Assembly: GCA_905178155.1 (NCBI GenBank) | Contig: CAJINV010000003.1 | Location: forward strand, 11,040,339-11,104,338 | Reading direction: 5' to 3' | Source of the DNA: Amoebophrya sp. A120 | Lineage: Eukaryota > Protista > Dinoflagellata | Length of the DNA stretch: 64,000 nt | Shown here: positions 2,386 to 64,000 of the stretch, piece by piece | How the letters are laid out: the number at the start of each line of letters is the position of its first letter | How positions within the stretch are numbered: the first letter of the stretch is position 1 | Translations under genes and position numbers: made by a program | Notes under the pieces: generated by a model | The model's input: the letters and a program-made list of their open reading frames with translations, nothing else | What the model was told of the DNA's origin: nothing | The model's database searches: none

Positions 2386-5300
2386 ATGAGCAAAGACTCG
2401 AAGCGGCGCAAAACCGCGGACGTGGAGGACATCTGGGAGGACAAAGTAGGGACCGTCGACTACATCAACATTCCGCCAGAGTCAAAAAGGTCGGCGTGGG
2501 GTATCATAGTTACTTGCGGCGCAAAGAAAGATCTACATTTTGAAAAATACTACTTCAACGTATCGCGAGAGCACCTCGTGTCCGACGGCATCAGGAAAGG
2601 CGACGCGGTGACATTTAGGGGTAACCCAGCCGATCTCCCTGTTGCGGGGCACAATTTCCCTGAAGCGACTTGCGTTCGCGTGACAAAGGCGTCCGATGAC
2701 GATTCGCTCCAGCACCAGCACCGGAAAGACCCCGAACAGGAAACGCTTTCCTTCGCGAAAAAGCTGTCGGAAGTCTGGCCCGCTTGCGGGGAGCAGCTGG
2801 CCTGTCAGGTCGAATTTCTGGTAAATAATGTGGCGGACTTGATTCACCCGCAGAGCGATGTATTCAAGGGAACAAATGCACGCCCAATTGTCGTGCCTTG
2901 CCCTTACTCATTAATGTGCATCGATCGGCCGACGCCCGAAGGCGAATTCGAAGTGTTGGTGGAGTCGCGTAGTTGATTGGTACAGCTGTAACTAGCTCTA
3001 GCATCTTCGCCGTGATTCGGATACGCGTCGCAGCATCAAGGAGCTGCGCCCTGCATGACGAGTAGAAGCCGCTACTTCCCACTTCAATCATCTAAAGCCA
3101 CCCTCTTTGCAAGAACCAAATTATCTGTACCAGTGTAGTGGCCTAGTGTGCTTATTGTAAGTAGTTGACCTTGACTCGAATTTCACAATCACAAGAAACG
3201 AACGCGATGATCCGTCGTGCTCATTTAAGCTCAACGGTAACGAATAGCTTGCCGAATAAGTACTTTTCGCGGGCGGGGTATGGGTGTGCAATGTTCCTTC
3301 TTCATCATACTACGGCGCGCTGGCCCAGGGGTCCGCTAACAGCATTGTGCTGTTGGACGGTCCAACGGGGTCCGGGAAATCTACCCTCGTGGGTATGATG
3401 CGCGGTTGGACAACGTGCTGGGCGGTGGAGGGGTCGCGCACAGTCCTGCAGTACAAGAGCCCCAAGCTAGCCGCTGAAGCAGGCGCGCCAAAAATCGGGC
3501 ACTCTTTAATGCAGAGCGAAACTCTGCGCGCACAACTACACCCGCTTGGGGAGAGGCCTGGAAATGACCAGGATGGAGCAAAACACGAAGCCATTGGCGG
3601 CACTGGACGTGGCGGGGTATATTTGGTTACGGCTTGGACGGTAGTTAGAAATCCCGGCCGCGGATATTGTGCGGATATTATGACTCAAATGGAAAACGTG
3701 CGACAGTTTTTCTCTCGTCGTGGTCGATCTTTCTCGCCGACCCCCAGCCCCCCGCCCAAGGCCAGGGGCGGGCCAGGGGTGGGCCGGGGATCGATGGGCC
3801 AGGGGAGGGTCGCCCAGGGGCGGGAGGGTGGGGACCCCGTTCCGACCCCTGATCGCGGCCGACCCCGGCAAACGCCTAGCCTGGCCCCGTGCATGTTGGC
3901 CGGCCGCTCGTGGGCGGTCGGCCCATTTTTTCGCTGCAGCCTTGGGAAGCACGCCTTGGCCTTGCGAGTCTGCCTGGCATGGAGGCCAGGTGCCGGGGAC
4001 AGACTCCCAAGACTGCGGAGTTGGCGGGAGTCCCCTGTCCTGAAGCGCTCCCGCCCACCTGTAGCAGTGGCCAGGAGCCTTCAACCCCGCCCGGAAGGTT
4101 CGTTGGACAGGACTTCCCGGCCGAACCTCCGTCTTGGGAGTCCTTCTTCAAGGAGGCAAAAAAGTGTCTGCGGACTGGCGAAAAAAAGGTCCCGCGGATT
4201 TGTTGGACAGGCACGATTTTTGGCGCCCGTTGCCTGACCCAAAAAATCCACCATAGCGTGCGGGCGCGGATTTTTTGGCACAAATCCGCGACAAATCCGC
4301 GAGGCCCGCTGAAAACAAATCCGCGGACCCCCTTTCGACAAATCCGCGGACCCCCTCCGCCACGTCCGCGAATCGAGAATCCGATCGGGATTGGCGCCCT
4401 GCCAAGTGCCCTCGGGGGGCTTTATCAGGCTGCTATGGCCCATCCGCGGCGATCATCAAAGGCGCGTCCGCTTTGGGAGCGGGCGGGCCTCCGTGCCTTG
4501 GAACCTCCGGGGGGGCCTTCCAGGCTGCTATGGCCCCGGTTGGGGAAGGGCTTGGGGAGGGACTGGGGGAGGGGCCGCAGGGGTGGGCCGGCGGAGGGTA
4601 GGCCCGGGGTGGGCCTGGGGTCGGTGGGGCAGGGGAGGGTGAGCCAGGGGAGGATGGGCCCAGGGTGGGCCAGGGGTCGGTAGGGCAGGGGTGGGCCAGG
4701 GGACGGCCAGGGGAGGTCGGGCGGCCAGGGTTGGGCCAGGGGTCGGGGGGGCAACCAGGGGTGGGCCAGCCAGGGGCGGGCCAGCCAGGGGCGGGCCAGC
4801 CAGGGGCGGGCCACCAGGGGCGGGCCACCAGGGACCCAAATCCGCACAATATCCGCGCGCCCTTATTCTAACGGGTGTCCAAGCTCTAAATATTTGGTAT
4901 GGTGCTGCGATTCATATTACTTAGTCTTTGAAGATTGATATTTATTTTTATTGACTACGTAACTCCTGGCAAGCGGCGTGGCTTTTTTCGGGTCATTTCG
5001 GGCAGCGCAGTGCTGGGTGGTGCCCGTCCACTCATGAGGATGGAAAACACCCCTAAGAACCATCCGGGGCGCACACAGAAGATCCTACTATGTTTATACA
5101 ATGAACAAGAACAAGATTTTGATGATGATCTGATGATGACTCAGTCGTGCCTACAGCATGAGTTGTACGCTTTAAAAAGTGGCGCCATAATTATAATCCT
5201 CAGCGCCGGCGCCACGACGCTGTGCATTGTAGTCTTTTGCTGTAATTAGAATTCCTTGTGGTAATTGTTAGACCATCAAGTTCAGCTACATCATCAATAA

Positions 5301-9976: not shown

Positions 9977-12900
9977 ATGTCTTTCTTTCTGCAGCTTCTT
10001 CAAGCTTTACTCTTCGTAGTCGATCGGGCCGCTGGTGCTGGTGCAACATCACCACTGGTCAAGGTGAAACCCTGGAAATTTCTTGGTCCGTGGCCTGTGG
10101 GGAAGAACGAGTTGGATGTATGGATGTGTCAGGTTTGAAATCGTCAAAGTTGAAATGGTTTGCCATGCATAAAACGCATACCAGTTAGACCTACAGTTTG
10201 TAGTCGGTGCGTGACAAATTTTCCCGGCCCCGGAGGCGAGTCTGTCATGCGGTTTAGGGCAAAAGAGCTGCCTTCTGTCATGCTAGTCAGTAGTCCATTG
10301 GACTACTGACTAACTTGTGACCAACTTGTGACCCTTACCAGGACTATAATCTGCCTCCCTTGCGTCCTCTGCAATAGAGTCACTTTTTGCATCGCATTTT
10401 ATGCATTACAAGTCATTTCAACTTTGTCGATTTCAACTCTGACGCATCCATAGGATGCGGATCCTACATACACGGCAGCTCGCGGCGGCGTCTTCGATCT
10501 GTACCGGAGGGCCTTTCTGGTTGGGACTGAAAAGGGACACGAAAAAGAAGCGGAGCACCACGGCGTCACTCCAGATTCACACTCAGATGGAGATGGAGCC
10601 GATGCCGAAGATTTTCCGAATTTGTTCTCGGAATTACCTTCCGGCGGTCACTTGACTGAGCAGTTTTCAGCTGCCGACGGTCTGCGGTCGAGCGAAGCTT
10701 CCAAATCAACCACGAGGACCCTCACGAAGCAGGGAAGACTAAGAAAGCTGTTTGACAGCGAAGCTATCGCAGCTTCGCAGTCTACGGGAGGTGCAGCGAA
10801 AAATTTCAACGATGTTTGGGCTCGGGTCACGCCGCGTAACGTGCAATGGAGCCAGCTGGTGCAACAGCTGTCCTCCATGGAGGTCCTGGAATGGCAAGGC
10901 TGGGCGATTGCCAAGTTCGGCCCACTGGCCGAGAACACCACATACACGGTCGGTTGCGAGGGGGTGCACACCTTCTACATCGACGGCTTTGAGCAAATTT
11001 TTCCCGGTGATATGTTTCGCACGCGCCGAATTTCCAGTGCAGTCAGCTTTGCTTCTGAAAACAAGCAGGACGGCCAGCAGCATCAGCATCACGTGCTCTA
11101 TGTACCACTCAAAATCAGGGGGAACGCGGGCGAGTTTCGGTGCCGGGTCGAAAGAGTAGTTTCAACGGAGATGAACAAGGTGGAGTCTTTTGCCACGGTA
11201 GAGGTTAAAAAAGCTTTATTGCCAGAACTCCTCCATCACGCCGAAAGAAACACGAAGACACAAGCGCTCCTCGACGGTGCGGGTGCGACTTCGGAGGACA
11301 AGGAAACAGCGAGAGCCGCCGAGGGTTCTTTTCCTACGACCACCTTGATGGGTGAGCACCTGTCTCTCGCTATCACGAATCATCTGAGCGCGGAGTGGTT
11401 GCAGTTCCGCTTTCAGCCTTGCGAAAACCGAAACTCATGCAAGCCGGACGTGTTCGAAGTCCTACCACTTGAAGGAGCGGGCGGGGTTACATCAACCACC
11501 GGTGGTCAATATTCGTTTTCTGACTTAGTGGCCCCCGGACAGGCAACGGCACTTCCAGTCCGATTTCGCTTGATTGGCGAAGGGCGCAAGAAGTACGACC
11601 TCCAGAGTCCCCCCCGCGCTTGTGACTCAGTGGGCCTACAGCTGGACGTTTTCATGCGAGTCCTCGCCCAGCCGGACGCCGGCGATGATAGGCAAGATGG
11701 ATTGAAGAAGAACGGGACTGAGGATGATTGGAATTACCTCAAGACTTTACGCTTCACGCTGTCATGTCGGACGGCGCGGCAGTCATTTGTCTACACATTT
11801 CTTGACCACGACGGCACGGTCAACCGTGGCGCTGCTATCATGCCGCGCACTCATCAAGATGAACTACTACACGAAGCAACTTCTAATCAAAAAGAGGCAC
11901 CATCGGGCCAAGGGCGAGGAGACGACGGCCGCCTAGAAGAAGAAAAACCCCGATATCCAGTTCTGCTTTCGCTTCACGGGACCGGGGTGGATCCGCGCAA
12001 CCACGCAGACAGCTACAAGTACAAGCCGAAATCGAAAGAGGTGCAGAAGGCCGCAGGTGTATCTGCACCTGTGAAGAAAGTCTACAATGCTGATGAAAGC
12101 AAGATCCCCTTTTTCTACGGTGTGGACGGGGCCTGGGTAGTTTGTCCGACGCGCGCGGGCGCGCACAACTGGGAGTATACTGGGTTGCTTTCTGCCGTTC
12201 GTGCTCTGACGGCACTAAAAGCCATCGTCGACGGGAAACCCGAACTACACCGATTTGCGCGATTGGACCTCGACCGCGTCGTCTATTCTGGCCACAGCAT
12301 GGGCGGCCACGGCGCTTTGGTTCTGGCAACCAGGGTTCCGGAACCCATGGTGGGGCTCGCGCCCTTGGGGGCCTGGATCAAAAAGGAGGAATACGGTGAC
12401 AGCAACCGGTTCTTTCTGCTGGACCTGCAGAACGAGTTCGCGCCCCCAGAGCTGAAGGCAGTTCTGGAAACGAGCATGCTGGAAAACAGTGTGGAACCGC
12501 TTTTAGACAACGTTAGATCCAGTATCGCTACAGCTCATTTAGGCGACGATCGCGAGATGCACAAGCTGGACGTCGAGCAGGAGACAGAAACTACAACGAA
12601 GAAGGTAATTTCCAATAGGGCCACAAGGAGAGTTGAAAAAGACTCAATCCCCGCCGTCTCAAGGGTCAAGCTACGAGTCGGTGCAAAAGACGGCGCCACG
12701 CCTCCGTGGTACTCCAGGCGCTTGGCTAGAAGTCTGGTGGTTCCCGAAAGCGGAGTACCTGGATCTTTTGGAGGCGGGTTGACGACTCATCCCCGAGTTG
12801 GGCGGAGCAGGGGGCCGTCGATAGACTACGAAGAAGTGCCCGACAAGGAGCATTGGTGGTGGGACACCAATCGGCCGAACGATGGCGGCGTGCTAAACGA

Positions 12901-15900
12901 TCCCCGTATGCGTCAGTGGTACAAGCAAATTTTCCAGGTGGCAGCTGCGACGCCGACGATTGCAGATGCTTTCGTAACGTTGACCGAATCGATGAAATCG
13001 AATATCATGATCCCCGCCGAGAACAATGCTTCATCGTGTGTTGCAGGCAAAGGTGGACGAGACAGCCACATCACGGGGGACGGAGATGAAAAGTGCCTCG
13101 TAGATGCTGGCAACAGAAGCTCTGCGGCAGAGAAGGTGCTCCTTTCACTGAAACCCCTTACGCTGACAGCCACGAACTGCGCGAGCACTGTCGGGGGCTC
13201 GATTCAATTACTGGAACAGAAAGCACCCTTTCGCACCTCCAAAATTTTTGTGTCTGAGCGGCAGATCGTGCTGGCCACTACGGAAGGGAACGACCAGGAG
13301 GACGCGCTGGCTGGAACAGGCAGCGGAGTGCAAGGCGGCAACATGATCCGAGTAATTTTCAGACTTACAATTCAGCAAGTCGACAACGTTTCAGCTTTTG
13401 CCGTCGCCTTTCCAGGTCATTTTAACCACGAGAAACAATCAGACCGTCAAAAAAAGCTGGTCGCTTCGAGCATTGAGGTCTGTTTTGCAGAGCAAGGGTT
13501 AGAGTCAGAGACTGTCACCCCCTCCGTGGCTTGTCTACGCACCACAAGCACCGCCGACTCTGTTCCGGGCGCAGGCCATTTGAGGTTGCACGTTTGCCGG
13601 GTGGTGAAACTGAAAACGCAAGGTGATAGCAGGTCCTCCTCGGCCGGTGATACTTGGGAAATTTGTGATCCCGATCGACTACGGCAAGCGCGATGGCAGC
13701 AAGGCCCGTTACGTAACGTTTTTGCACGCCCGTTTGTTACGGTTGCGGCGGAACCTTTTTTGCGCCAGTCCGTCTACCTGGCTGGACTGCACTATGCTGC
13801 GGCGGACACTCGCTCGCCTGTGGTTCTGGACAGCATGCACAGCACAATTGAGACAGCGCTCGATGTTGGGGGGCATCCGCATCAAAACATCGTGCTCGTC
13901 GGAGGTCCCAACGTAAATCAAGCTGCGGCAGCCTTGTGGAGCCGCCATCGGCACCTCAAGGGTTTGCTCTCGTTCACGTTTGACGAGCGACACAGATTCT
14001 TGGAAACTTATCCGGCTGAAAAAAACTATCACTATCACAAAAAGCCACTTTTTGGCAAAAATTGATTTTTTTTTGATTTTTTTTGCGGCGCATTGGGGCT
14101 CGATCCTTGTGCCTGGTATATTGTTATTGTTGTTGCGATTAATGAGTGATATAGTTAGCTAGCTAGTGGTCGCTTGTGATGATTGTCATAGCTAACAGGA
14201 GAGCCGAATGGAAGGCCGGGCCGGGCCCTCGCTCCGAAGGCGAGCTCCCGAACCCTTGGTGGTGCCCCGGCCTTGGCGGGTCGGTCCCTTCCGGCCCGGG
14301 GCGGGAGGCGGCCAAAAGGTGCGCGGCGATCGCCACTCTCCCACCGTGTTTGAAAAATACTATCACGCCACTTTCTGGACCTGATTCCCAGCTTTCAGAC
14401 CTGGGCTGATTTGATGCTCCGGCGGTGGCGGGTGAGCTGCCTTCCGTTCCGAGGCTAGAGGCGGCCAAAAAGTGAGGCTCGATCGCCAGTCTCAGCTCGT
14501 GTTTGAAAAACACTATCACTCCACTTTTTGGATCTGGCTGCCGACAGCCAGTCCTCCCCGGATTTTTTTGGTTTTCAACACTGCGCGCGCAAATTTTTTC
14601 AAGAAATTCAAAAACCCGGAAATTCGATCATTTTGGCTGTGATAGTGTTTTTTCTGGCGGTGGTCCTATGTGGGCCGTGCCGCCGTGTTTGAAAAACACT
14701 ATCACACTTTTTTCCGGCACTCAAAAAATACCAACTTCACACCTTTTTTCACTTTTTCTATATCAAATCGCTCAAAAGTGTAGTGTGATAGTGTTTTTAA
14801 GCGCGAGCTAATGCTGCGAAAACACCGAAAATCAGCTCTTTTTAAAAATGCAAATTACGATGCTACGGCCCGGGTCAAAAAGGGACCCAAAATCGCCGTA
14901 GCGCCGTGGCTGAAAAACACTATCACACACAAAAAAGCGCCATTTTTGACCTCCCCGGAGAAGAAAAATCAATGTGATTTCAAAGTGTGAGCACCAAAAA
15001 AATTAGTGCTTGCGCCATCACCAATTTCTGCCGGAGGTTGTGGCCTTTGGCCTAGCCCCCGGGGGCTCCGGATGTCAGACCTGGCCTTCGAGCCCCCAGA
15101 TCCATCTGGGAGCAGGTCTGAGAAACGAGCCATAGAAAAGTCGCTCTTTATCCACCAAACCCACCAATTCCAGACTCGTCGTTAACGAGCATGGTGGAGA
15201 CACGCTTCCGCGCCCTCATGGCGCTGGCCGACTGGGCCGCAACGAGTTTGCTCTCGTTCACGTTTGACGAGCGACGCAGATTCTTGGAAAGTAGGCACGC
15301 ATCTACAAAAGTTTTGCAGCGAAGTAGCGTAATCGTGGTCAACATGCCACCTACGCAAGAATGGATACATACTATGCAATCTTCACAGTTCTTTTTCGTC
15401 AAGACGAAGAAACAAAGCAACTGCGCGAATCTGTGACTGTCAAGCTAAGTGAAGCCAAGATCATACCAGGCTTTTACGGGCACATCCGTGAAAGATATTC
15501 AGTGGCTTTCTTCTCCTGGCGCGGTTTTGCCCGTGCTTGCATTTGCAGTTTCGATTTGTACGAATTTTTACGCAAGGCAATGCTGATACTTTTGTAAAGG
15601 ATAGTAGCAGGACCGAAATCAGATTTCAGGAGAAATACAGCTTTCCGGCAAGCCGGAGCATCGGGCTTCTCTTATGGTTCCCGTATCCAATTGGCGACCC
15701 AGATGGTAGAGGAACCGATGCATTTCATCGACTTAGCGAGGACTCCACAATCCCCGTTGACGCGGAGGAGGAGATGGAGAGCGAGCGCAAAGTCTTGCTG
15801 ATATGTGGCACAGACGCCGAAGGACTGCGCGCGGCAACGCGGCTTGGGCAGCCAACAATTCCGCCAATGATGCGCGCGCCCTTCACGAACCAAGTGCCAG

Positions 15901-17197: not shown

Positions 17198-19954
17198 ATG
17201 AGCGCAGGAGCTTCTAGCTTCCCTGCCGCGAAGGGTAGCCTGACGATCGGGTCCTTCTTGGAGCAGAGCCGCAGCCATGATTGGTCTACATCCACGTCGC
17301 CCTCACCAACAGGCGCCATTTCGTACCCATTGGCCTTCCTCGCGGGTGCGGGCTTCATGGCGGACGCCTATGACCTGTTTGTCATCGACCTGGTTATCGC
17401 CATCATCCAGAAAACCGGGGAGGACAGCAGTACCTCGAGTCAGGCCCCTGACAAGGAGAGTAAGGACATGCAGGCTAAGGGAGCCATTTCCTCGGCGTGC
17501 CTGTTCGCCGCCATCGTTGGCCAGCTGGGCTTCGGCTTCCTCGCCGACTGGTTCGGGCGCAAGATCCTGTTCGTTCTCACGTGCGTGCTGATCATGGTTG
17601 GGTGCGTCGGCCAGGCCAGCGCGGGCGCTTTCAACAGCCAGAGCGCATTGCTGCTGCAGATTCTGCTCTTCCGCATCCTGCTCGGAATCGGCATCGGTGG
17701 CGAGTTATCCTGTGCAAAAGTATCGCACTCGTATAAATGCAAGTCTTGCATTACAAATCTTGCTCTTAAGGTAAAACTGCATTACAAATTTTATTTCTCA
17801 TGCTGAGGAAATTTGTAATGCGTTGTTTATACGAGTGCGATACTTTTGCAATGCATACGAGTACCCGCTGGCGGCCACCGTCACCAGCGAGAAGGCCACG
17901 AAAACGGAGCGCAAGCGCACGCTGGCCGTCGTGTTTTCCATGCAAGGCTGGGGCCAGCTCCTGTCGGTCTTGGTAGTGTATGGTCTGCTGCAGGCCCAGG
18001 GCATGTCACTGTCGACCGCGTGGCGACTGTCGATCGCGGTTGGCTGTCTCCCCACGCTCATCGTGGTTTACTTCCGGGTTAAGATGACGGAAACTGAGCC
18101 GTTTCGGAGAAGCAGAAAGGAGGATGAGCAGCTTGAGGCCTTGATGTTGTTACGAGTGCAAAGAAGACATGTAGAGGTCGAGATGGGCGGGAGGAATATT
18201 TTTTGGAAGAGTGGGCTCCAGATCATGTCACCTTCCTCAGATCATCCTTAAGATCTTCGTTGCTGCTACCTTTTGTAGCATCGCTCTGTTACTCAGACCG
18301 ACGCAAGACAGGATCTTGCTACTTCACCTCCAAAATGTTGTAAGTACCTAGTGCATCATACTTGTGCAGGTGCACTTCCCATGATTACAAGTGTCTTGGC
18401 GGATGCATCAACTTGATGCCCTTGTCCATCATGTCCTTGTCCCTCATGTGCATTAGAGCACAAAAGAACCGCAACCGTTTGCAGTAGCTGAGGGGCTCTG
18501 CCCCCCATGCAAAGATGAACGCAGATCATCTTCGCACTTCTTACACGTACTTATACAGTATTCTAATTCTCCTGGGTCGTTTTTTTTTGCAGCTCAGCAG
18601 CGCAGTTCGAAACATTTCCCCCTCCTGCTCCCTCCTCGGTTTCTTTTCCTTTCCATACAGCACACACAAGTCAGCGTCGCCAACATCCGGAGAACACGAC
18701 GAGCAAGACGATTTACCAGACACTTTCACTTACGACCCCCCCGTGACAGGCACAGGCTCCGGAGGTGGTCCTCCTGCCGGAGCACTGACGTCAACGACCA
18801 GTGCCGGTGGGACAATACGGGGGCAAGAAGAAGGCGGCAAGGCACTCGCTGCTCTGTCCTCTCGTCACCAGTCCGCGTCGAATAAACGCCCTTCGTTTGG
18901 GAGGCAGTTGGCGAATCAGTGGAAAATCGCTCGCACCGCGGGACTATCAAATGTAAAAATGTCTGGGTCTGGAAGAATGCAGCAAGATTTGTCATGCATA
19001 TTTCAATTTCTCATGACCCATGATGCGTGTAATGCATGCCCTAGCATCACAAGTTTTTTGAGGGATTCTTGATGCCCATTCCGCATGACAAATGCCCTCT
19101 CCGCGTAGCAAAGATTAGACTCTGTTTGCTGCTCATGCAACGCAAATTTTTTAGACATCGAAACGCAGCATCACAAGTTGCATTCTTCCAGACCCAGACA
19201 CTTTTACATTTGATAGGGCCTCCTGCCGGTGCTGGTGGGAACCAGCGTCTCGTGGTTGCTGCTGGACGTAACGTTCTACGGCACGAATCTGTTCAAGACC
19301 GACATTGGGCAGCAGATTTTCCCCGACGACGAAGATGCCAGCGTACGGCACGCCCTGCAGCTGATGACGCTTCGGGCTTCCATCCTGGTGTTCGCCGGTC
19401 TGCCGGGCTACCTGGTCACGATCTTTTACGTCGACCACATTCCGCTCCAGAAGTTGCAGTTTTACGGGTTTGTCACCCTCGCTGTTCTCTTTCTGTGCGG
19501 AAGTCTTGCGCGGATCGGGGGCCAGGAGATACTCACCTTCGTTTTCATCAGCGCCACCGTCTTCTTTTCCAACTTCGGCCCCAACGCCACCACCTTCATC
19601 CTGCCCGCCCTGGTGTACCCAACGCCGGTGAAGGCCACCTGCCACGGCTTCTCCGCGGCCATGGGGAAGGCGGGGGCGGCCCTCGGGACGTACTTGTTTC
19701 CGACCATTGTCACGCACTTCGGGCTCGCCACGGTGCTACAGTGTTGCGCTGCCGTCGCTCTCGCCGGCGCGATCGTAACCCAGATATTCATCCCCGAGGA
19801 GGATGAAATTTCGAACGAGGAAATGCTTGTGTCGTCAGCCCCCGCTTCGGCTCTCCTAGAGCCGGAAAGTTTCATGGATCAACGAGCAGAAGTGGGTGGA
19901 GGTGGCAGAAATAAAGGCAAGACGCACGAGCACGAAAGAAGTAATCGAGCTTGA
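17198..19954 (+). CDS. MFS inorganic phosphate transporter, Pho84/PHT1 family; about 4 exons
   Basis: AGAGFMADAYDLF, GQLGFGFLADWFGRK, FRILLGIGIGGE|YPLAATVTSE, VFSMQGWG, SWLLLDVTFYG, FFSNFGPNATTFILPA..YPT..KATCHGFSAAMGKAGA. The middle intron (about 18146-18660) is not precisely placed. Confidence 0.92.
17705..17858. mobile_element. IR intron, family A, 154 bp
   Basis: TTATCCTGTGCAAAAGTATCGCACTCGTATAAA / TTTATACGAGTGCGATACTTTTGCAATGCATAC; TSD GAG; splits the conserved GGEYPL motif. Confidence 0.92.
18944..19216. mobile_element. IR intron, family B, 273 bp
   Basis: About 38-bp near-perfect TIR CTATCAAATGTAAAAATGTCTGGGTCTGGAAGAATGCA / TGCATTCTTCCAGACCCAGACACTTTTACATTTGATAG; flanks GGA/GGC. Confidence 0.9.
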
Positions 19955-21585: not shown

Positions 21586-24500
21586 ATGACATCGACGGCA
21601 TGGGCGGAAAGCTGCGACAACGCGAGTTCGATTTTGGCGAGTCGCCGGGGAGGTAGACAGAATATGCAAATAACAACACCTTCTGCGGGCCCTTGCTCGG
21701 ACGCCAGTGGTGTGTCCTTGTCCCCAAGTTTGTTTGCTTCTTCTTCACGAGCACGACGTGGACAAGAACTGAGCTGTCTTTATTACCTTTCCGCGGCCAC
21801 TGTGTCGCTGGTGCTGATGCTCCTACTTATCGCTTGTTCCGACCACACGTTCGAGGGACGTACTAGGGGATCGCAAGCAACTGACTTTTTACCCGCAGTA
21901 GAGGCAACGGCTCTGCGAGGCACCCTGCACGCTCCCAGGAAAGAGCCCGAAACGCCGAGCGTCCCGAGCTGGTTCGACGTCAGCATGCAAAAGAAATTTC
22001 GGAAGCGCTTCGCAGATCCCCAAAAGCGGCGGAACACGGCACTGACGGGCAAGAATGTAGTCTGCGTTGAGGGACCCCACCGCTGGGCCAATGCGCAGGT
22101 ACTGGAGAGCATCTACATCAACGTGGTGCGACCTCTGGGGCCCGACACCGATGTCGTTGTGGTCGCGCCCGATGTCAACTATGCCCAAGAGCAGGACGGG
22201 CGGCACTTCAATACTGGCCGAAATCGTGTGGGGAAGGGGCGCACGTACCTCCAAGCCGAAGCTTTGGCGGAGTTTTACTTGCAAAAAAATCACTCCGCCT
22301 TTGAAGAAAACAGGAACTACCTCAATGAGGAACAGAAGCAAGATCAGGAAACCGCGGAAGCGAGCGAGCGGACCTCAGGAGCAGAGAAATCTCCTCGAGA
22401 AACAGCAGGAGCGGATCCGGGGGACAACCGCGACCAGGTATTGGCAAACACGATCGTGTATGAATTGCAAAAATGTCTGGGTCTGGAAGAATGCAACTTG
22501 TCATGCTGCATTTGGATTCCAGAAAAATCTGTATTGCATGAGTACCACAAGGAATGTAATTTTTGCTACGCGGAGAGGGCATTTGTCATGCGGAATAGGC
22601 ATCAAGAAGCTCTGAAAAAATCTGTGATGCTAGGGCGTGCAGCATCACAGACATCAGGGCCCATGCAAAACGTGCATGACAAGTGGTAGAATGTTCCAGA
22701 CCCAGACATTTTTACAGTTGATATCGTGCAAAGCGCCAACTTGCGTAGCGAGATCGAGCGCACGCACGAGTATGTGCGGGAGACGAAAGTTGGCACGCTA
22801 GAACAGCTATGCAATGCAAAAGTATCGTACTAGTATAAATTGCATCACAAATTTTTCAAGAAGAAAAATGGTGGAATTTGTAATGCTGATTTACCTAAAA
22901 AGGAATATTTGTCATGCATGATAGCAATTACTACGAGTACGATACTTTTGCACAGCATAACAACCGCACTTACACGCACTGAAGCACAGTCCCTGTCTGT
23001 ACAAGCGCATCTTCGGCAAGCACCTGATATCCCACAGGAAAGCACACCCATCGCCATCCAGGAGAGAACAACAGCAAGAATGTATGAATATTCTATATGA
23101 TGTGTGCTGCTCGTCTCGTCCTAGATTTTTGATACAACTAGAAATTGAAATGAAGCAACGCGGCGGGAATGAAGGATGTTGCTAGATCTGGAAATGCAGC
23201 AATGCGGAAACCGCAACAAAGGAGCAAATTTTCTGTTATGCAGCAGAATGCCCTTCCCCTTTCTTTGACTTTGTAGTGTCAGTGTCTGTGTTGCTCCTGG
23301 CGTTCCAGTAATTAGCGAGGTCGTACCAAACAAAATAAGCAGAGGCGGACATTAAACCAACTCGCGCACACAATTTTAGAAGTTTTCTTCTGGTTAGATG
23401 GGCGTGCTTTTTTTGGGCATACCTGAAGGCATTGGACATGCAGCAGGATGAGACGCGTCTAGAGCTGGTCAATGACTTCTCTCTATCCTGAGTGAAAATG
23501 TCACCACCCCAGGGTTGTCCTCGTCATGCCGATCTGCATTCAATAGCAATGCGGTGGAAACTACTCACATATAACATTTGCATATGCGCATCTGCAACAT
23601 GAGGCGAATTCCTAGGTGGCAGAGGAAATGCTGTCAATTAGCAGGATTAAGTAGATGGGTTCGTCGTGAAACTCCGGCTGCCCTCCTTTCTCTGAACCTA
23701 CTAGCCCTGCTCATCTACCGCGTGACCCCAAAAACTTCACGATTTGTTTTCTTGACTTTGGGGCGCGGCTGGGGCGACGCCTTTGCACGGGATCTTCTCT
23801 GGAGTGGTTTCGCGACAGCAACAGCGAGCAGCCCGGCTACCGGTTTGGCATGCACCTGATGGCGAGTAAGTGGAAGTGCCTGCTCGCGATGCGGCTGAAC
23901 AAGCTAAAGCTGAGCAGTTACGACTGGTTCGCCTACACCCGCAATGACGTGTTCTGGGCCTATCCTCACCCCCCACCCTATTTGCTGAACCACGAGAAGT
24001 GGATGCAGCCCGGCACCGGGTGGGGCGACGCGGGGGGAAAGTTCGACGTGCGACCGGTGGACATCTGGATTCCCGCATGCTTCGACTACGCTGGCATCAA
24101 TGACCGGCTCTACACCATCCGCCTGCTATCCTGTGCAAAACTATCGTACTCGTAGTAATTGCTATCATGACAAATATCCCTTTTTAGGCAAATCAGCATT
24201 TACAAATTCCATTTTTCTTCTTGAAAAAATTTGTGATGCAATTTATACTAGTACGCTACTTTTGCACAGCATACCTGCGCCCCGGCGGCGATTTTCAGTG
24301 GACCACCGCGGCGGAGAAGAAAAAGAAGATCCGGGAGCAAATCCGTAAGGCCAAGAAGGTGTTCTTCCGCTTCACGCGCGCTGTGTACGCGCGGCCGGGA
24401 GGGATGCCCATGGTCCGCGCCGACGCGCTGCCACCGCCGAATGCGAGCGACCCCACCGACGTCAGCTGGCGCTTTCTCAAAGGGTTTGAGGGCGGCATAG

Positions 24501-27500
24501 GTGCCCAGGAGGTCAATGGGGAGTTCTCTTTCCGCCGCTTCCTCGACGCGCACGACTTCAAAATTGGCCGCTTCGATTGCATCGCAGCGCTTGTGAAGAT
24601 GGGGCAACTGGCGAATGATTTGATATCCACTATTCTTCCCAAGGTGATCGAGAGTAAAATGAAACAAGAAGAGGCCCGCGCGGGAAATGCAACCTCTGCA
24701 GCTGGTGGGGATGTAGTTGATATAATAAGTGCTGTAACGGAGGGGACAAAATCGAATAATGGCAGCCAACCGCAAACCCGCGCACTTGCAGAAGACAAAC
24801 TGACCGTCACTCCTGCCGCTATGTCGACTGATGTTGAAGGGAAAGAAATGATGAAGAGCGAAAATAGTTTGGGAACAAAAAATGTTGCAAAAACACCTAC
24901 CGTGAAAACAGATGATGTTGAAGACGAGGAGAATGATCCGTACTACTGCAGGGAGCTGCAGACGCCTGGCTTTTCGGAGGTTTTTGGGCGGCACCGAATC
25001 AGTTTTCGGAACCACTTGCTCTTCGATGCCACCGTGCAACTGAACAGCGACTTTCAGCCGAATGGGGTGCAGCGTTGGTTCCAGGGGAAAGCAGGCAATG
25101 ACTCGTGGACCATCGCACTGCCCCTCGCAATCCCCGACGAACACAAAGCCGCGGAGGCAGCTCCTCCTACATCAACTGTAGTGGATCTGGAACAACATCA
25201 TGATCAGAGCGATACTAGCGATAAGAGCAAGCGCCCTGGAGGGAGCAAGGTGGTGGACACGTACCAACTGGCCTCCGCGGCCGTTCTCCAGGAACTCTCC
25301 AACGGCACGCTGCTGAGTCCTTCGCACGAAAAAAGCTGGGAACACCGCCACCCCGACTTTCTCCCGTTGGTGAAGGCCTACCGCCACTCCCACGACGGGG
25401 TGATGAAGTTTTCGCAGGCGCAGTTAGACCTAAACCAGGCCCCCGTGGACCACGCGGCGGCACAGGCGGTGTTGCAACAGCACCGCGCGAAACCAGATAT
25501 GTGGAGTGCCTACAGTCGCAAAATGGTACGGCCGCGGCTCGGGACGCACATGTTCCTGCAGCGCCAGAGCTGCGAAAGCTTGGTACGCAGAGGCCTAGCG
25601 CAGTGGAACACGCGCTACGGTGACAGTGTGGATTGGTTCAGGCCAGACACCATGGAGGCTAGCCTCGACGAGAAAACTCAGCCCAAATTCGTGCTAGAGC
25701 AGTTTCTCACGCGGAAAAATCGTGTGTGGAACGCAACACGGTATCACAACCTTGCCACAGCCCAAGAAGATGCTGAGCACAAAAGCAGGACCGCAACCAC
25801 ATCGACCGCGACAGGCGCGGCCGCAGCAGCTCCAGAAGCAGCAGTTGAACCACTTAAGGCAAAAATCGTTGACCCGCCAGAAAAATTTTCTTCCTCTCTC
25901 AGTGCCTTCGTGCAGGAGAAGCTGGGCGAGGCGGTTGAGTACCTGGTGTCAAAGTACTGTGATACAGCGCCGATATGGTGGGAGCCGGGTTCTGCAACAG
26001 TTCTGCGACACGACACGCAACACGTCTGGACACAGATGCAGAATTATCTCAAAAAGCACTTGGACGAAAGGTTCGTCACCAGCACTTCTACTGCCAAGAC
26101 AGGAGCAGGGAAGCAGCTGGAAAACGTTGAGGACCCAGACGACGCCGAGGGCGAGAGAGAAGCGGAGTCGCTCATTGCGGAAGCATATGGATTGCAAACA
26201 GATGTATGGTGGGTCTGGTTGGTCGAGAAAAAAGCAGACTCACGTTTATCATGCATTTTTTGTAGAAGTTGAATGACTGGAATGCACATAAATTAAAGCG
26301 TGATGACAATTAGATATGCGAAGCAGGCTTTGCCTTGCCTCGGTGAGAGATGCCCTCTCTGGGATTCGAAAACGCGACAGATGCTGTTGAATTTGCGTCG
26401 AGAGCAGGACAGATTTTTGTCTGCTCCAGACTCAGCATCGCAAGGTGCAACGACATTCCAGACCCCGACACATCTGCAATGTGTCTATAAAGCGAACGCG
26501 GAAGGCAGAGCGTTCGATTCGTCGTCCTCTGGAGGGCCGGCTGATGTTTCGCTTTCACCACACGCGCTCGATCACCACGTAGAGGCCAAGGCTTTCGCGC
26601 GCAGGAGGATTTCTGCCGCTACAGCAACTGCTGTTTCTGCTTCCTCCTCCTCTTCCTCGACAACTGGCCTACATGAGCAATCGGAGCAAAACGAGGACGG
26701 CATCCGTCTGACGCGCCGTGCGGAGGAAGGTGAATCTGGTACGAGGCGACGGGTGAACGAAATCGTCGGGTTTCATGCCGAAAACCTGCCGCTGGGGAAC
26801 TACGATCGGACGCTGCAGAGCTGGGTGGACGACTTTCGCTACGAACTTGCTTGTCCCATGCTGGACTGGAGCGACTGGAACTTGACGCGGTGGCACCCCG
26901 TGGCGCTATCCACCGCAAATAAGTATGTAGTTCGGGCCTGGTGTCACGCATCTTGAGGATGAATCCACATAGATGGTCATAGTCTGCAAGGAAAACAAGG
27001 GGCCGCAAAGCAGTAGAGGTTTTGCCCATACCTATCTCCTCGAATGAGACATTCTGCGTCCTGCAGATCAATTGACACCAGCATCGCAAGTTTGCATGTA
27101 CCACCCACCAAATCCAGCACGTCATTTGTGGTGGATAGGCGCATCATCAGTACAACTGCAGCGCGCTGTCCGAACCCGAGCACGTGTACGTGCACCGCAT
27201 GCTATGCGTCGAAAAACAAGTATCGTACATCGTAGGCGTATTAGAAATCGCATTTAGATTTAGAAAAGTCTGGTCGGAAAATGAAACTTGTCTGCCATGC
27301 TCATGCTGCATCACGTAGAACAGGAAAGGACCACCTCGACCTGTCAACCTGCAGAAGTATATGCGATTCATACGACCACGATATCGGTCTGCAGAGGATA
27401 CCTGGTTTCCTTCACCGATTCGGTGCAAGCGGGCGTGCCGGGCATGGAGCACATGGACTTACACATGGAGGACCGCGTGCTTGCCTTCATGTTGCTCTCC

Positions 27501-30500
27501 CACCGCAGCGCCCCGGCGGGCCTGGGGTACGGGCGCGAGTTGAACCTGCAGGCTTTTGGGCAGCTGTATGCTAGTCAAAATCTCGGGCCGCCCCCGCTGG
27601 GCCCCGCGACGCCATTCGACGACTACTTTTTCATGTACAACCACACGCTGCTGTGTAAGCCCTACGACCGCGACGTGGCCTACACCTGGAACCGCGGCAC
27701 CGCGGTGGTGAAGCAGCAGCAGCAGGGTTTTCTCCTCGAGAACACACTGCCGGAGCGGGTGCGGCACCTGCAGCGAACGGTCGCATACAAGTTGACGGAT
27801 CACCAGCTGCTGCGCGCGAGCGGCATCCACAACCGGTCGCGCGAGTACCTGCTCGACTTCTACGATCCGGCGATAAAACCGAAGGACGGGGTGCACAACT
27901 GGGGCGCCTACGCGCACTATGTCGAGATGCCGCGCACCACGCTCACGCGCACCTATCCTCGATGCAAAAATTGCATCCCCTTCGCACTTACTCGTATACT
28001 ACAAGAACACGTACAAACATGCCAGGCTGGCATGACGTTGTGTACAGATCTGCTTGTACTTCTTTCTCTTTGCCTGCATCTGCGACGTGAAGACGAGTTT
28101 CATTTTTCCTTTTGCTGGCCGACTTTGAATTTCAAGTTCCCTTCTGCTCCCATGCGATTTCTACAACGAGAGGTACGATAGTTTTGGAATGCATAGCACA
28201 GGGGCACGGACGAAGACCAACCAAGTCAGCGTGATCTCTGCGCCGTACGGCGAGGAACCTTTAGCGGTCTCCACCATGGTTCTGTCGCGGCGCCTGGCCC
28301 GCTATTTTGGGCAGCAAGACCCCGGCGAGCCACACCCAGACGACCTCTATACCGACGGCATGCGTCACCGCGACAACGCGCGTGGATTAGACATCCAGCA
28401 CCAGCGCCGCTTCCTCCAACTAGTGACCCACTTCCCAAACCTGACCCGGGAAGATCTGCTATCCTGTGCAAAAGTATTGTATCGCAATTGGTCGTCGAAG
28501 TCGATGTAGCTGCAATGAATCGGAACACTCGTCCGTGACAAATCCCATTCCGAAGCAGGTTCGCGTGAGGACAGACCCTATTTGTATTTTCCAAACACTC
28601 GTGCGAAGATATAATACCTTCTGTCATGCAAATCTACATAGTGCGATATTAGAAGACAAGACATAGAATACTTTTGCACTGCATACCTGTCACACCTCGA
28701 CGATGCTCAAGCATCAGAGGAAAATCACAAAAGTCTTCACGCTCTAGACAACGTATTTGGAGCTGCATATGCCCCAGCAGCTTCCGCGGTGTCAGAAAAA
28801 ACATTAGATGGTGACGCTCATGTATCACCTTCAACATTTGGATCTGGTTCATCCGTCGAATTATCAGCTCGTCTCCGGCAAGCCGCAGCTGCGACCACTG
28901 CCGCGCCAGAGATTATGCGAGACGCCTGGAATCCAAAGCTTCTGCAAAGAGGAGCGAAAAGCAACTACGGGTCAAAGCAAGAGCAGCTAGGTGGGAGCAT
29001 TAACCACGCAGTACCAAGAAAAGGACCTAGCCCCAGCGCTAGTGGGGCAGACGAGCATCTTCAAACTGGCGCCAATGGTACCTTCCCTACAAGAACACTG
29101 GTAACGCTGAATGAGACTCTTTCCTCATTCGAAGCGAATCTAGACCCGGTCATCGACTATGATGAGTATGCGGACCGAAATTTTCGTCGGGCACACCGTT
29201 TCGCAGAAGAGCTCGCGGTCGCAAAGGTGGCTGCGCAAGAGCCGCGGCCAGAAGAAGAAACCCCAAAGACAGCAAGTGGAAGTGACACCAAGGCTAAAAA
29301 CAGGCTGCAGGCAGCTGCACTAGAGGACGAGATGCACACACTTCATCCGCTATCGCAAGAAAAAAGTGTTACAGTTGCACTCTGTGTTGCAAGACCGGCA
29401 ACACAGACAACCTTTCTCATGCAGAAAATGCTTGGGAGCCTCGTTTCCTTCCTGTTTTCCCTTGTTATGATCTTCGCATTACAAGTTTTCTTTGCCACAC
29501 ACAGAAAATTTGTGATGCAGAAACTCCAACAAGTGTGTAACTGTAACACTTTTTTCTCGTGATATCCGCTGTATCCGAAATACTATGCGCAGATGAAGGA
29601 AGCCTACGAGAGCCAGGAATCTGGACACCTCGATGTGGCGCACATCCCGTCCAACTTGCAATTGTCAATACTGGAGGAGCTCAACAAAGAGCGCGAGGCG
29701 GATCCAGGACATGATGAAACCCAAACACAAGAAACGGAAACAGGGCAGAGCGGCGATCCGAAGTATCAGCTATTCAAGTCGCGCACACCCCGCAAGCGCT
29801 ATGGAAGAGTCAGGCTCGTCGCCATCGACAGGGAGTTGAGCCTGAGCCGATGTCTAATGCATAAAATTCCTACCAGATGATGACCCCTTGATTATAATTT
29901 TTGAGCGACGCATCACAATTTTTCAACACCTTCTACTAAAGCCAGTGAGTCATAGTTTGTGGTGCAAAAAGGGGTGCCCACCCAGATACTTAAGCTCTCG
30001 AGTAGCCCCATTGAGTCTATAGCATTGCCGCGTTTTATCAGGCTAGGAGTCGGTCTCATTATTTGAATTTGCCTTCTTTGCAACAAGATAAGCACTCTGA
30101 TGCGCCCCGCATTTTATGCATGATCATAAATCGTTTCAGGTTCAACTTTGACTTGGTCGATTTCGTCGAGCTTGACGCGTTCATAAACGTGTGTGCGCGG
30201 GTATTGAGTATTTTTCCGAACTTCCCTTCGGGTACAGCACGATCGACTTCTGGGAACCGGAGGCGAAGTATCAGCACGCACAACTTCCGCCCGTGCCCCT
30301 CACTTGTCTTTTTTATGCCGAATTCCAAATTCAGTTGCTGCCCAGTGGACCTGTCGCACTGTTTGCATAGGCATACTTGTACAAAATCTGGAAGCCCAAA
30401 CAATTATATCGCACTCGGCACATGGAGACATCCTCATGCTCGATTCCCGCGCCGCGGTGGCGGTGCTGGTGTTTGTAAATATATTGCCGTTCTTCAATCA

Positions 30501-30906
30501 TGCCATAGCCATACTTACGAGTGAAGGTAAGGGGGAGTAGTAAGTTGCGCACTCTCATACGAAGCAGCAGCATGCCCGGGATCCTGGCCAGAAGGACTGT
30601 CTCTCCTGTTGGTTACGGGGCCCGAAGTACTCGCAAAACACGGGGTGGATGTGCTGGAAAGCCAAGGGCATGAAGGTGAAAGACCCAAGCCGCTGCTGCG
30701 GGCGGCTGGAAACGCCGTTCTTGCACGCCAACCTTTGGACCCACTACCCGCGCACAGATTGTTTGCTGGCGGAGCATTTGTGCTCCGATTTTCTCTTTGG
30801 CATGTGGCGCCGGAGCCTGAAAACGGGATTACCCAACGTGCAAGAGGCGCAGCGGCCCGACCGCCGGGAGTACGCGGATACGCCACTTAGCAATCTGATC
30901 TACTGA
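21586..30906 (+). CDS. Very large multi-exon type II membrane protein, glycosyltransferase-like; at least 10 IR introns; start uncertain (ORF open from 20830) and structure beyond about 29850 unresolved
   Basis: TM segment YYLSAATVSLVLMLLLIAC; motif YDWFAYTRNDVFWAYPHPPP...IWIPACFDYAGINDRLY resembles uncharacterised algal GT-like proteins. Removing each IR element plus 3 nt keeps the frame open from 21586 to about 29850, except for one unresolved short intron near 26243-26310. Confidence 0.65.
22458..22724. mobile_element. IR intron, family B, inverted relative to the 18944 copy, 267 bp
   Basis: GTATGAATTGCAAAAATGTCTGGGTCTGGAA / TTCCAGACCCAGACATTTTTACAGTTGATAT; TSD CGT; interior is the reverse complement of the 18944 interior. 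Confidence 0.9.
22807..22960. mobile_element. IR intron, family A, inverted relative to the 24126 copy, 154 bp
   Basis: CTATGCAATGCAAAAGTATCGTAC / GTACGATACTTTTGCACAGCATAA; flanks CAG/CAA. Confidence 0.9.
23027..23422. mobile_element. IR intron, 396 bp
   Basis: ATATCCCACAGGAAAGCACACCCATC / GATGGGCGTGCTTTTTTTGGGCATAC; TSD CTG; frame restored (GKHL-KALD). Confidence 0.85.
23483..23795. mobile_element. Degenerate IR intron, 313 bp
   Basis: CTATCCTGAGTGAAAATGTCACC / GGCGACGCCTTTGCACGGGATCT; TSD TCT; frame restored (NDFS-LEWF). Confidence 0.7.
24126..24274. mobile_element. IR intron, family A, 149 bp
   Basis: CTATCCTGTGCAAAACTATCGTAC / GTACGCTACTTTTGCACAGCATAC; TSD CTG; joins ORFs 23850 and 24221 (YTIRL-RPGG). 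Confidence 0.92.
26906..27138. mobile_element. IR intron, 233 bp
   Basis: CTATCCACCGCAAAT / ATTTGTGGTGGATAG; TSD GCG. Confidence 0.88.
27202..27401. mobile_element. Degenerate IR intron, about 200 bp
   Basis: CTATGC..TATCGTACATCGTA / TACGACCACGATA..GAGGATAC; flanks ATG/CTG; an alternative in-frame end at 27302 is possible. Confidence 0.6.
27953..28196. mobile_element. IR intron, family A-like, 244 bp
   Basis: CTATCCTCGATGCAAAAAT / ATAGTTTTGGAATGCATAG; TSD CAC; joins LTRT-GARTK. Confidence 0.8.
28459..28686. mobile_element. IR intron with family A termini, 228 bp
   Basis: CTATCCTGTGCAAAAGTATTGTAT / ATAGAATACTTTTGCACTGCATAC; TSD CTG. Confidence 0.9.
29350..29565. mobile_element. IR intron, 216 bp
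   Basis: CTATCGCAAGAAAAAAGTGTTACAGTTGCAC / GTGTAACTGTAACACTTTTTTCTCGTGATAT; TSD CCG; joins LHP-LYPKYYAQMKE. Confidence 0.9.
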
Positions 30907-50089: not shown

Positions 50090-52440
50090 TAGTCAGGCCG
50101 TTCCGGTTCCAGCCCGGCAGGCTGAGAAGGCCACAGACACTGGGGTCGAGCTGGCCAGGAGCAGCACCACAGAGACCGTAGAAGACGCACCCCGCCGCAC
50201 CACGACGGCGGCCCCCATGCATCCAGGCAAAGAACACGGGGGCAGCGGCAGAAGGTGCAGGACGACAGTAGGGGGGGCGCCCGTAGGTAGCGCCACGGCA
50301 ATGGCCAGCAGATGCACGCCCGCGCGCCCCCTTTGGCGAACGCCCCACGACGCGAAGAAGCCCCGCGGCGGAAGCCAAGGTGGCGGGCGCTTGCGAAAGT
50401 CCGGCCGCCCAGGCCCCTGCCCACCCGGAAGGCGTGGCGGCCGGGGAGGCAGGTGCCGCATTGGCCAAAGGAAGACGCCACATAGATCGTCGGGGGCGGG
50501 CGCGCCCGGGCGGGCCACGACGGCTGCCGCCACTGCCACACAGATCCGGCGGCGGGACAGCGGGAGAAAGGGCAGGGTGCAGAGGGGGGGTGTCCGTAGT
50601 TGCGCGTGTAATGCCGGGGCATGCGCCCCCGCCGCCTCGGCGTACGCCGGCCCCGCGGCGTCAAAGGCCGTGGGGACGATCATTGTTGAGCGGCCGCCCG
50701 GCCGCTTAGCCGCATACCCTGCCGGAGTGAAGGCCGCAGCGGCAGGGGCCGACTGTGCCGGAAGCGACGGCGAGGCGCATCCCGACATGCAACGCTGGCC
50801 GCTGCCACACAGACTGACATGGACGCACGCGCCCAAGCACTAGGCGCGCCGGCGAAGCGAAGGAAGGTCCGCGGAAAAGGCGCCCCCCCTGCTCTCGGGC
50901 CTTTTTTCCGCTCTCGGTCGGGCTGGGCTTTTTGCTTTCGGGCTGGACTGGCGCTTTCGGGCCTGGCTTTTGCTTTCGGGCCCGCCTGGTCTCCGCTTTC
51001 GGGCTTGGCCCCTGCTTTCGGGTTGCGCCTTCGCCTTCGCGCGTGGCGTTTCCGCTGCCTGCGCTTCCGGGCTCGGCTTTCGCATCCGGGCCCGGCTTCC
51101 GCTTTCGGCCTTGGCCCTGTTAGCTTCTTTCGCTTGTCGGCTTGGCTTTATTTCGCTCTCGGGCCCTATGGGAGCGTCAGGATCGAAATCGACAAAATCG
51201 AAAAAAAATTCCGGCAGTCCTTTGAGGGGGCCTCCAGGGCAACCCCTCGGGGACCCCTTTCGATTCTGACACACTCAAGCATACCGTGGTGGCTAGCTCG
51301 AAAAGGGCCGAGTGCGTCAGAATCGAAATGCGAAACACCAGCCCCCCTCCAGGGGGTCCCGGGATTTTTTTTCGATTTTAAGAATTTCGATCCTGACGCC
51401 TCCATAGGCCCGGCTTGTGTCTCCGGCCTTGGCTTTCGCTTCCGGGCTTGGCCTTCGCTATCGGGTTTGGCCCCCATCTGCTTTCTCGGACGGACGGGCG
51501 CCGCCTTTTTTCGCTGTCGGGCCTGGCGCCCGCTTTCGGGCTGGGTTTTGTTTCGCGTTCGTGTTTTGCCTTGCTTCGCTTTCGGGCTCGGCCTTCGCTT
51601 TCGCGCCCAGCCCTCGTTTTCGGGCTTGGCTGCCACTTACTTTTGGGCTTGGCTTCGCCTTCGGGCCTAGCTTCCACTGCCGGGCGTGGCTCTCGCTCTC
51701 CTCCGCTCTGGCGCTTGTGTTTCGGTCTCGGAGCTGGCTTTCACTGCCGGGCCGCTTTGATTTCGCAGCCGGGCCAGGCTTTCGCTTTCGGGCCGTCTCC
51801 TTGGCTTTCGCTTCGGGCCCCGCGTGGCTTCCCTTCGTTTTCGGGGCCGGCCTTCGCTGTCAGGCTCGCACGCTCGGCGAGTGTTAAGCAAGCCCCGGGC
51901 CCTGGGGTCTTGGGGCCGCAAGATTGAAGCACGAAAGCGCGAAGGGGCGACGCCCGAAAGTTTGACGCGCAAACACATCGGGCTCGCAGGCCGGAAAGAG
52001 GTCCGTCCCGAAGGCGCTCGAAAGCTCGAAAGAAGTCCCGAAAGGCCGAAAGAAGGCCCGGAGGCAGGGAGGCCCGCAATCCGCCGCGGCGGTTTTGGAA
52101 GCCCACACACAGCCTGGCTGTGGGCTTCCAAAGCCGCCGCGCCTGAATATCTCGAATCTGAATACCCCGAGTCTGAATCTCTCAAATCTGAATCTTTCAA
52201 ATCTGAATCTCTCAAATCGGAATCTCGCAAATCCGAATCTCTCAAATCTAAAATATCTCGAGACTCGAGATTCGAGCTTCGAGATTTGAGGTTTGAGATT
52301 CCAGATCTGAGATTCCAGATCCGAGATTCCAGATTTGAGATTCCAGATTCGAGATTCCAGATTTGAGATTCCAGATCTGAGATTCCAGATCTGAGATTCC
52401 AAGTCTGTTTTTTCGTTTCTCAAATATCGGTTAATTTGAG
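50090..52440. repeat. GC-rich composite repeat or probable transposon body with internal tandem arrays
   Basis: Abrupt GC shift; degenerate CTTTCGGGC arrays at 50890-51860; 15-bp TCTGAATCTCTCAAA array at about 52143-52255; 14-bp GAGATTCCAGAT(C/T)T array at about 52270-52400. Confidence 0.7.
51166..51407. mobile_element. MITE with introner-type termini, outside any gene, 242 bp
   Basis: CTATGGGAGCGTCAGGATCGAAAT..AAAATCGAAAAAAAATTCCGG / CCGGGATTTTTTTTCGATTTT..ATTTCGATCCTGACGCCTCCATAG; TSD GCC. Confidence 0.88.
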
Positions 52441-63676: not shown

Positions 63677-64000
63677 AGGCTTCGCTGCTTCGAGGCTGGC
63701 TTCGCTGCTTCGAGGCTTCGCTGCTTCGGGGCTTCGCTGCTTCGGGGTTTCGCTGCTTCGAGGCTTCGCTGCTTCGAGGCTTCGCTGCTTCGAGGCTTCG
63801 CTGCTTCGAGGCTTCGCTGCTTCGAGGCGTTGCCGCTTCGAGGCTTTGCGGCTTCGAGGGTGCGCTGCTTCGAGGCTTCGCCGCTTTGAGGGTTCGCTGG
63901 CTGCTTCGAGGCTTCGCTGCTTCGAGATTTCGAGGCTTCGCCGCTTCGAGGCTTCGCCGCTTCGAGGCTTCGCCGCTTCGAGGCCTCGCCGCTTCGAGGC
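63677..64000. repeat. 16-bp tandem minisatellite (AGGCTTCGCTGCTTCG)n running off the window end
   Basis: About 20 near-identical units. Confidence 0.9.

Follow-up and report, generated by a model that had tools for sequence, protein, structure and literature searches.

Introner elements closest to those considered here have been described in Amoebophrya sp. A120 itself (Farhat et al. 2021, PMC7789003). According to the parts of that article available to us, they bear inverted repeats composed of TAT, seven variable bases, and AAA, are bordered by direct repeats of 3-5 nt, form a hairpin, and have non-canonical ends, with splice sites variable relative to the hairpin; the element families are strain-specific when A25 is compared with A120. 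U2, U4, U5, and U6 and most spliceosomal proteins were found in A120, and no U1 snRNA. In Table S4 of that article, each of the nine top non-canonical motifs of A120 carries T at +2; for A25, the motifs seen there start with TT, and the repeats start with TTA. Three other systems are relevant, each cited here from the accessible parts of its source. The introner-like elements of Polarella glacialis and Aureococcus make target duplications and give introns from either insertion orientation, with GT/GC/GA and AG sites provided by the element end or the duplication and an orientation bias in classes 6, 8, and 10 (Roy et al., 10.1101/2020.10.14.339549). The nonconventional introns of euglenids, for which a MITE origin has been proposed, have palindromic trinucleotides at fixed unequal offsets, terminal pairing, and direct repeats that let the junctions slide; in Euglena, where the pairing was shown to be required, the excised introns take the form of circles (Nomura et al. 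2025, PMC12501133; PMC11282704). The IS3EU/GingerRoot DNA transposons have TA..TA termini and usually 6-bp duplications (PMC10045372).

Neither the elements themselves nor introners that work in two orientations with near-canonical sites are new to the literature. Three features reported below were not found in the literature searched: a single register of removal; an unbiased orientation in a sister genome, with the frame kept in all testable copies; and no GT-AG or branch consensus either way. On the introns of Amoebophrya, neither element orientation nor a fixed register was found to be discussed there, the available text and supplement of PMC7789003 included (its figures 3, 4, and S19-S25 lie outside the search and may show part of the register). 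The accessible parts of PMC8219788, PMC12787238, PMC11453091, PMC9860276, and PMC13149111 contain nothing on orientation in Amoebophrya, the method of PMC9860276 allowing for opposite-orientation copies, and the supplement of PMC12130899, as covered by 12 of its 14 files and 2 of the 118 Amoebophrya rows of file 8, makes no statement on orientation or a fixed register.

The window, i.e., the whole stretch of A120 DNA that was analysed, is 64,000 nt long. Two copies of one element family, called A, lie in a single gene:

21586..30903, + strand: host gene of copies 1 and 2, encoding a 1964-aa protein (A120 protein P0001), with 13 introns of the TAY...RTA type, one of them ending in ATC
22808..22959 (152 nt), - strand: family A element copy 1, TAT...ATA, with imperfect inverted ends of ~28 bp, opposite to copy 2
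22807..22963 (157 nt, element + 5), + strand: copy 1 intron as removed, with ends CT...AA in the -1/+4 register; its joint permits -1 or 0
22803..22807 (left, ACAGC) and 22960-22964 (right, ACAAC): 5-bp target duplications of copy 1
24127..24273 (147 nt), + strand: family A element copy 2, TAT...ATA, with imperfect inverted ends of ~28 bp
24126..24277 (152 nt, element + 5), + strand: putative copy 2 intron, placed by the A25 ortholog and by P0001, which is reproduced solely by 152-nt removals
24122-24126 and 24274-24278: perfect duplication CCTGC of copy 2, within which the intron is slidable

A preliminary description of this DNA had claimed that copy 1, reverse-complemented, is nearly identical to copy 2, and its intervals prove to be the exact elements plus one base per side. 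The near-identity is borne out: the reverse complement of 22804-22962 is 88.8% identical to 24124-24277 over 161 columns (E 3e-51), and the global identity of the two elements is 0.91. The inverted ends are not the cause of the apparent orientation, since the internal cores alone score 141 in opposite orientation versus 28 in the same one. TAT...ATA-shaped elements with a flanking duplication exceed chance in the window, where 11 pairs were counted against 0 in 20 shuffles. Copies 1 and 2 are introner elements of the type published for A120: both have TAT, seven nucleotides, and AAA at either end and a direct repeat, here of 5 bp, at the exon/intron boundary (features known from the accessible parts of PMC7789003); they belong to a family repeated at unrelated gene positions, and they are removed with non-GT-AG ends, as indicated for copy 1 and a further copy at 17706 by the contigs of run X1 (RNA by guess), and for copy 2 by the annotated protein and its ortholog only.

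An exon 3' of copy 2 is 100% identical to P0001 and 42% identical to its A25 ortholog P0002; a Pfam search gave no match for the 634-aa exon of the host gene. P0001 is reproduced letter for letter from 21586-30903 by the removals seen in 11 contig joints together with one 316-nt and one 152-nt removal, and the A120 gene model already includes both family A introns. As the preliminary description held, both copies interrupt the same + strand frame, the translation stopping at 325 aa if copy 1 is retained and at 475 aa if copy 2 is. Its further point, that both must be removed to keep the frame open, stands insofar as retention truncates the protein, but the need for removal leaves the boundaries unfixed, because copy 1 has 16 and copy 2 has 23 theoretical GT/GC-AG alternatives that keep the frame; the boundaries are fixed by the contig joint and the ortholog. 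P0002 is contiguous at the copy 2 site and aligns there with no gap and no extra residue, so the removal of copy 2 is fixed apart from the A120 annotation; on the strength of these two proteins, copy 2 is probably removed as 152 nt. For P0001 residues 125-400, around copy 1, no homolog was found among shorter proteins.

The window contains further elements of this kind, in the host gene and in a neighbouring one:

17198..19951, + strand: transporter gene, sugar/phosphate-type (Pfam Sugar_tr), with three TAY...RTA introns
17706..17857, + strand: third copy of family A, in the same orientation as copy 2, with a perfect CGAGT duplication; joint 17700>17858
18150..18661, + strand: old intron with decayed duplication and stem; the non-slidable joint 18149>18662 fixes the register -1/+4
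18945..19215, + strand: family B element in one orientation; joint 18943>19220
22459..22723, - strand: family B element in the opposite orientation, in the host gene of copies 1 and 2; joint 22452>22723
23028..23421, no strand assigned: TAT...ATA element, a host-gene intron; joint 23021>23421
23484..23794, no strand assigned: degenerate element ending in ATC, a 316-nt intron needed for P0001, with no joint among those listed
26186-26489, 26907-27137, 27203-27400, and 27954-28195, no strand assigned: TAT...ATA host-gene introns 1-4 of eight within 26186..30559, with joints and registers
28460-28685, 29351-29564, 29800-30185, and 30269-30559, no strand assigned: TAT...ATA host-gene introns 5-8 of the same eight, with joints and registers

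Pfam Sugar_tr matches lie on both sides of the 17706 copy. The family B cores (18945-19215 and 22459-22723) score 170 in opposite orientation versus 17 in the same one. The intron at 23484-23794, with ATC in place of ATA and with arms predicted to be unpaired in the full intron, is a natural test case of motif versus stem. Elsewhere in the window, two TAT...ATA elements, 10119-10452 and 51167-51406, have their ends in common and a perfect 5-bp duplication each, making a third family; the latter lies inside a tandem-repeat coding-like region. Another TAT...ATA element, 54426-54785, has arms identical at 18/20 positions and a poorly matched flanking 5-mer. Four dispersed 34-nt repeats and a 126-nt duplication occupy 14260-14930; X1 contigs differ from the window in 7 places between 14209 and 14856. 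G+C-rich tandem repeat tracts are found at 3600-4890, 50900-52430, and 62990-64000, the first flanked by a 50-nt inverted repeat with its arms 1.2 kb apart.

The evidence on joints comes from contigs of run X1, labelled RNA by guess and strandless, for which 15 of 19 joints are listed, one being a jump between copies. X1 contigs skip 14 elements in the two genes, including both copies of family B, the family A copy at 17706, and copy 1, whose joint 22806>22964 is supported by a single contig (depth 4.7, 58 letters on its shorter side); among the 15 of 19 joints listed there is none for copy 2. Every joint (14/14) removes the element plus 5 nt, that is, the element and one duplication, and the sole register common to all 14 has the intron starting 1 nt before TAY and ending 4 nt after RTA. 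One joint (18149>18662) is non-slidable and seven more are narrowed by mismatches between the duplications. Unlike the account in the available parts of PMC7789003, in which the sites are variable, one register fits 14/14 joints here; orientation, of which no mention was found in its text or supplement, is unbiased in the sister genome. The T at +2 of the nine published A120 motifs is predicted by the -1/+4 register, and the introns of A120 and A25 would both start with N-U-A. A preference for C at intron position +1, seen in the window, was not upheld in 80 copies outside it (A 26, C 24, G 20, T 10). The claim of the preliminary description that splicing is independent of orientation is supported at the level of removal, a reverse copy (copy 1) and a forward one (17706) of family A being skipped in X1 contigs and family B being skipped both ways. 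The raw RNA runs X8-X10 gave 7, 5, and 91 reads, partial and on element sequence, with zero exon coverage, and are uninformative for splicing; 87 reads of run X10 (19001 / 17836) connect two arms, one family B-like and the other family A-like, via 22 other letters and extend into foreign sequence, corresponding to a short hybrid element, unspliced in RNA of another locus or strain.

Family A has three copies in two genes of the window and 160 copies in 150 loci outside it. These loci (L001-L150) belong to an assembly filed among metagenome contigs, which is that of an A120-like Amoebophrya relative with family A up to 91% identical; it is a close relative and not the A120 genome, one FtsH exon being 88% identical to A120. 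The sharing of family A by the two contrasts with the strain-specificity given for A25 versus A120 in the accessible parts of PMC7789003. The census covers 150 pattern-selected stretches of ~420 estimated, all from one assembly and with no RNA support; of 190 homologous regions, 171 had both ends and 160 of these were unique, leaving 159 once one reverse-complement duplicate had been dropped. The 5-bp duplication is perfect in 119/160 copies and has at most one mismatch in 150/160, the perfect duplication being of 4 bp in 1/160 and of 6 bp in 0/160. The target 5-mers show no sequence preference, any 5-mer being tolerated.

Orientation relative to the host gene was called in 80/159 copies (79/159 remaining without a call) by a coding model for which the two genes of the window were the sole training set: 41 copies are oriented like copy 2 and 39 like copy 1 (p 0.91). 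The roughly 50:50 count that the preliminary description had proposed as support, there for expressed exons genome-wide, was thus obtained in a sister genome from coding-model strand calls. Adjacent copies are in the same orientation in 19 pairs and in opposite orientations in 19, despite 98.5% of A120 genes lying in co-oriented blocks. Where both flanks are coding, removal of element + 5 keeps the phase in every one of the 25 copies concerned (11 same, 14 opposite), the other 134/159 having failed the two-flank test. A Pfam check of the strand calls, on the 41 most confident copies, matched the called strand in 11/76 stretches and the other strand in 0/79, and the matches on the called strand cover 7 forward and 3 reverse elements. 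In a reverse copy within an FtsH gene (L003), removal as element + 5 gives a 99/99 match to the A120 protein. Self-trained strand calls gave 36/36 copies in phase, 18:18, but are partly circular, so the window-only model was preferred.

That the joined forms are DNA, from an insertion-free strain or from excision at the DNA level, and not spliced RNA is very improbable. The label of X1 as RNA is a guess, which leaves room for this reading, but X1 is devoid of all 14 elements, old ones with decayed duplications included, and in the exons of both genes no deviating letters are listed for it; its depth differs from gene to gene, dropping to ~2 in between; where the duplications are mismatched, the joined form has four bases from the left copy and one from the right; and the published RNA-seq-based annotation yields the same product. 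X1 behaves like cDNA and is probable RNA. Canonical splicing in each orientation, with GT/GC and AG in or near the inverted ends as in the Polarella and Aureococcus introners, is equally improbable and is largely refuted. It can point to an internal GT at +15 of copy 1 and a pyrimidine-rich stretch ending in GCACAG four bases inside its 3' end, to the presence of both the internal GT and AG in 22/39 reverse copies, and to in-frame GY-AG pairs near copies 1 and 2; however, the internal pair of copy 1 is not among the frame-keeping pairs, its AG occurs in just 1/41 forward copies, in the contigs, element + 5 is left out at non-canonical ends, and the A25 ortholog leaves no room for an extra residue at copy 2. 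Sites of the Polarella/Aureococcus type, a GT/GC/GA donor with an AG acceptor, are largely missing: GT..AG stands at the -1/+4 register in 2/80 copies and GY..AG can be read in any register in 7/80. Unlike the elements of those two organisms, as far as their source is accessible, family A needs no G or AG, tolerates any 5-mer target, and shows no bias. Nor do the copies have the branch-point consensus near the 3' end expected of U2 spliceosomal introns: TACTAAC is present in 0/80 and YNYTRAY in 9/80, at scattered positions (both motifs taken from general knowledge). Of the usable branch point and near-canonical sites in each orientation, which the preliminary description had named as the outcome that would speak against it, neither a consensus branch point nor the use of GT-AG was found either way. 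Self-splicing is the least probable of the alternatives: the folds of young copies are strong (z about -7 to -13), but activity of a ribozyme core in either orientation would be unexpected, the interiors differ between families, and Rfam gives 0 matches in the window.

The element interior and canonical sites are excluded as the signal by the arm differences described below, the lack of target preference, the rarity of GT..AG, and the lack of a positioned branch consensus. Because the inverted repeat gives the same terminal sequence in both orientations, the result places the signal in the symmetric ends, and since the repeat supplies stem and motif alike either way, the two are not separated by the orientation data. 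The preliminary description had named the symmetric terminal stem as the most likely recognition signal, a step that does not follow from removal in both orientations. Under such a structure-first model, a nuclease and ligase or an unconventional complex would read the hairpin and cut 1 nt before and 4 nt after it, leaving a linear or circular intron, as proposed for euglenids. Arm duplexes exceed those of shuffles (p <= 0.01) in 12/16 window introns, copies 1 and 2 fold with their ends paired in register (P 0.81-1.00), no branch consensus is present, and no U1 snRNA was found in A120 (in the accessible parts of PMC7789003); by analogy, the palindromic CAG/CTG code of Euglena, with its fixed spacers, also requires base-pairing. 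In 4/16 window introns (18151, 27203, 27954, and 30269), by contrast, the arms pair no more strongly than those of shuffles, yet these introns are skipped at the common register, with TAY/RTA at the exact offsets, which speaks against a stem-only signal. Moreover, G-U does not prevail over A-C appositions on the transcribed strand (85 versus 78, no bias; stem versus loop p 0.27), although a single stem position, picked post hoc, has 30 G-U versus 5 A-C. Pairing is expected of any transposon end, and the invariant +2 U resembles a spliceosomal donor, whose consensus is GU. Excision led by structure is rated as rather unlikely but as a serious rival, well above the alternatives of the preceding paragraph.

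Differences between the left and right arms track the element ends and not the 5' and 3' ends of the RNA, hence reverse copies are without adapted ends. In most family A copies, positions 4-7 of the arms do not match, so that the ends form a stem of 3 bp, followed by an internal loop and then an invariant TGCAAAA stem; a U-tract derived from the AAA motif is not universal across the window introns. Bare motifs are frequent, the two genes having 66 TATS sites and 59 SATA sites over 12 kb; being too common, TAY and RTA are insufficient alone, and old stemless introns need a further cue, for which no candidate was found. As a candidate for the signal, the palindromic end motif with likely assistance from the stem is favoured over the stem alone.

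We consider it fairly probable that a palindromic end motif, read at a fixed offset by what is probably a modified spliceosome, directs the removal of TAT...ATA elements together with one duplication. The elements are likely non-autonomous DNA transposons that make 5-bp target duplications and insert either way round; no transposase was found. They have the TA..TA termini of IS3EU/GingerRoot, but differ from these, as described in the accessible parts of PMC10045372, in the size of the duplication. The 5' site would be N-UAU(S), a donor that keeps the +2 U and drops the +1 G, and the 3' site would be set by distance, four nucleotides past (S)AUA, with no AG. Both orientations would present the same ends because the two motifs are reverse complements. 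In young copies, the terminal stem of 20-30 bp likely draws the ends together and so makes recognition more specific; it seems not to be strictly required in old ones. As 1 + 4 equals the 5-bp duplication, an exonic insertion would restore the original mRNA in any target or orientation, and such scarless restoration would explain the mass invasion by the elements. Given the retained +2 U and the reported U2, U4, U5, and U6, a U1-free spliceosome is most likely. With its palindromic end trinucleotides, unequal fixed offsets, terminal pairing (in 12/16 window introns), and sliding junctions, the system is like that of euglenids, while its formula N1-TAY ... RTA-N4 (14/14 joints) differs from the N3-CDG ... 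CH'G-N5-6, then purine, of Euglena, as given in the accessible parts of the euglenid sources, and the lineage is unrelated. A bolder proposal, which we put forward tentatively as possible, is a second splicing code, N/TAY ... RTA-N4/, non-spliceosomal or U1-free, under which every insertion of the superfamily, at any site and in any orientation, would be a scarless intron from birth; the 1 + 4 cut would correspond to the 5-bp stagger of the transposase, and the code would be convergent with that of euglenids.

In 2021 it was left unexplained how >60% of Amoebophrya introns are removed when GT-AG and, apparently, U1 snRNA are lacking. Given a fixed register and indifference to orientation, this splicing problem comes down to a stem and two short motifs that mirror each other. 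The register gives a rule for re-annotating Amoebophrya genomes and makes the open splicing question testable. It also offers a simple reason why coding sequence could be invaded by ~30,000 introners with no change to the proteins: if it is true, almost any new insertion would be a harmless intron.
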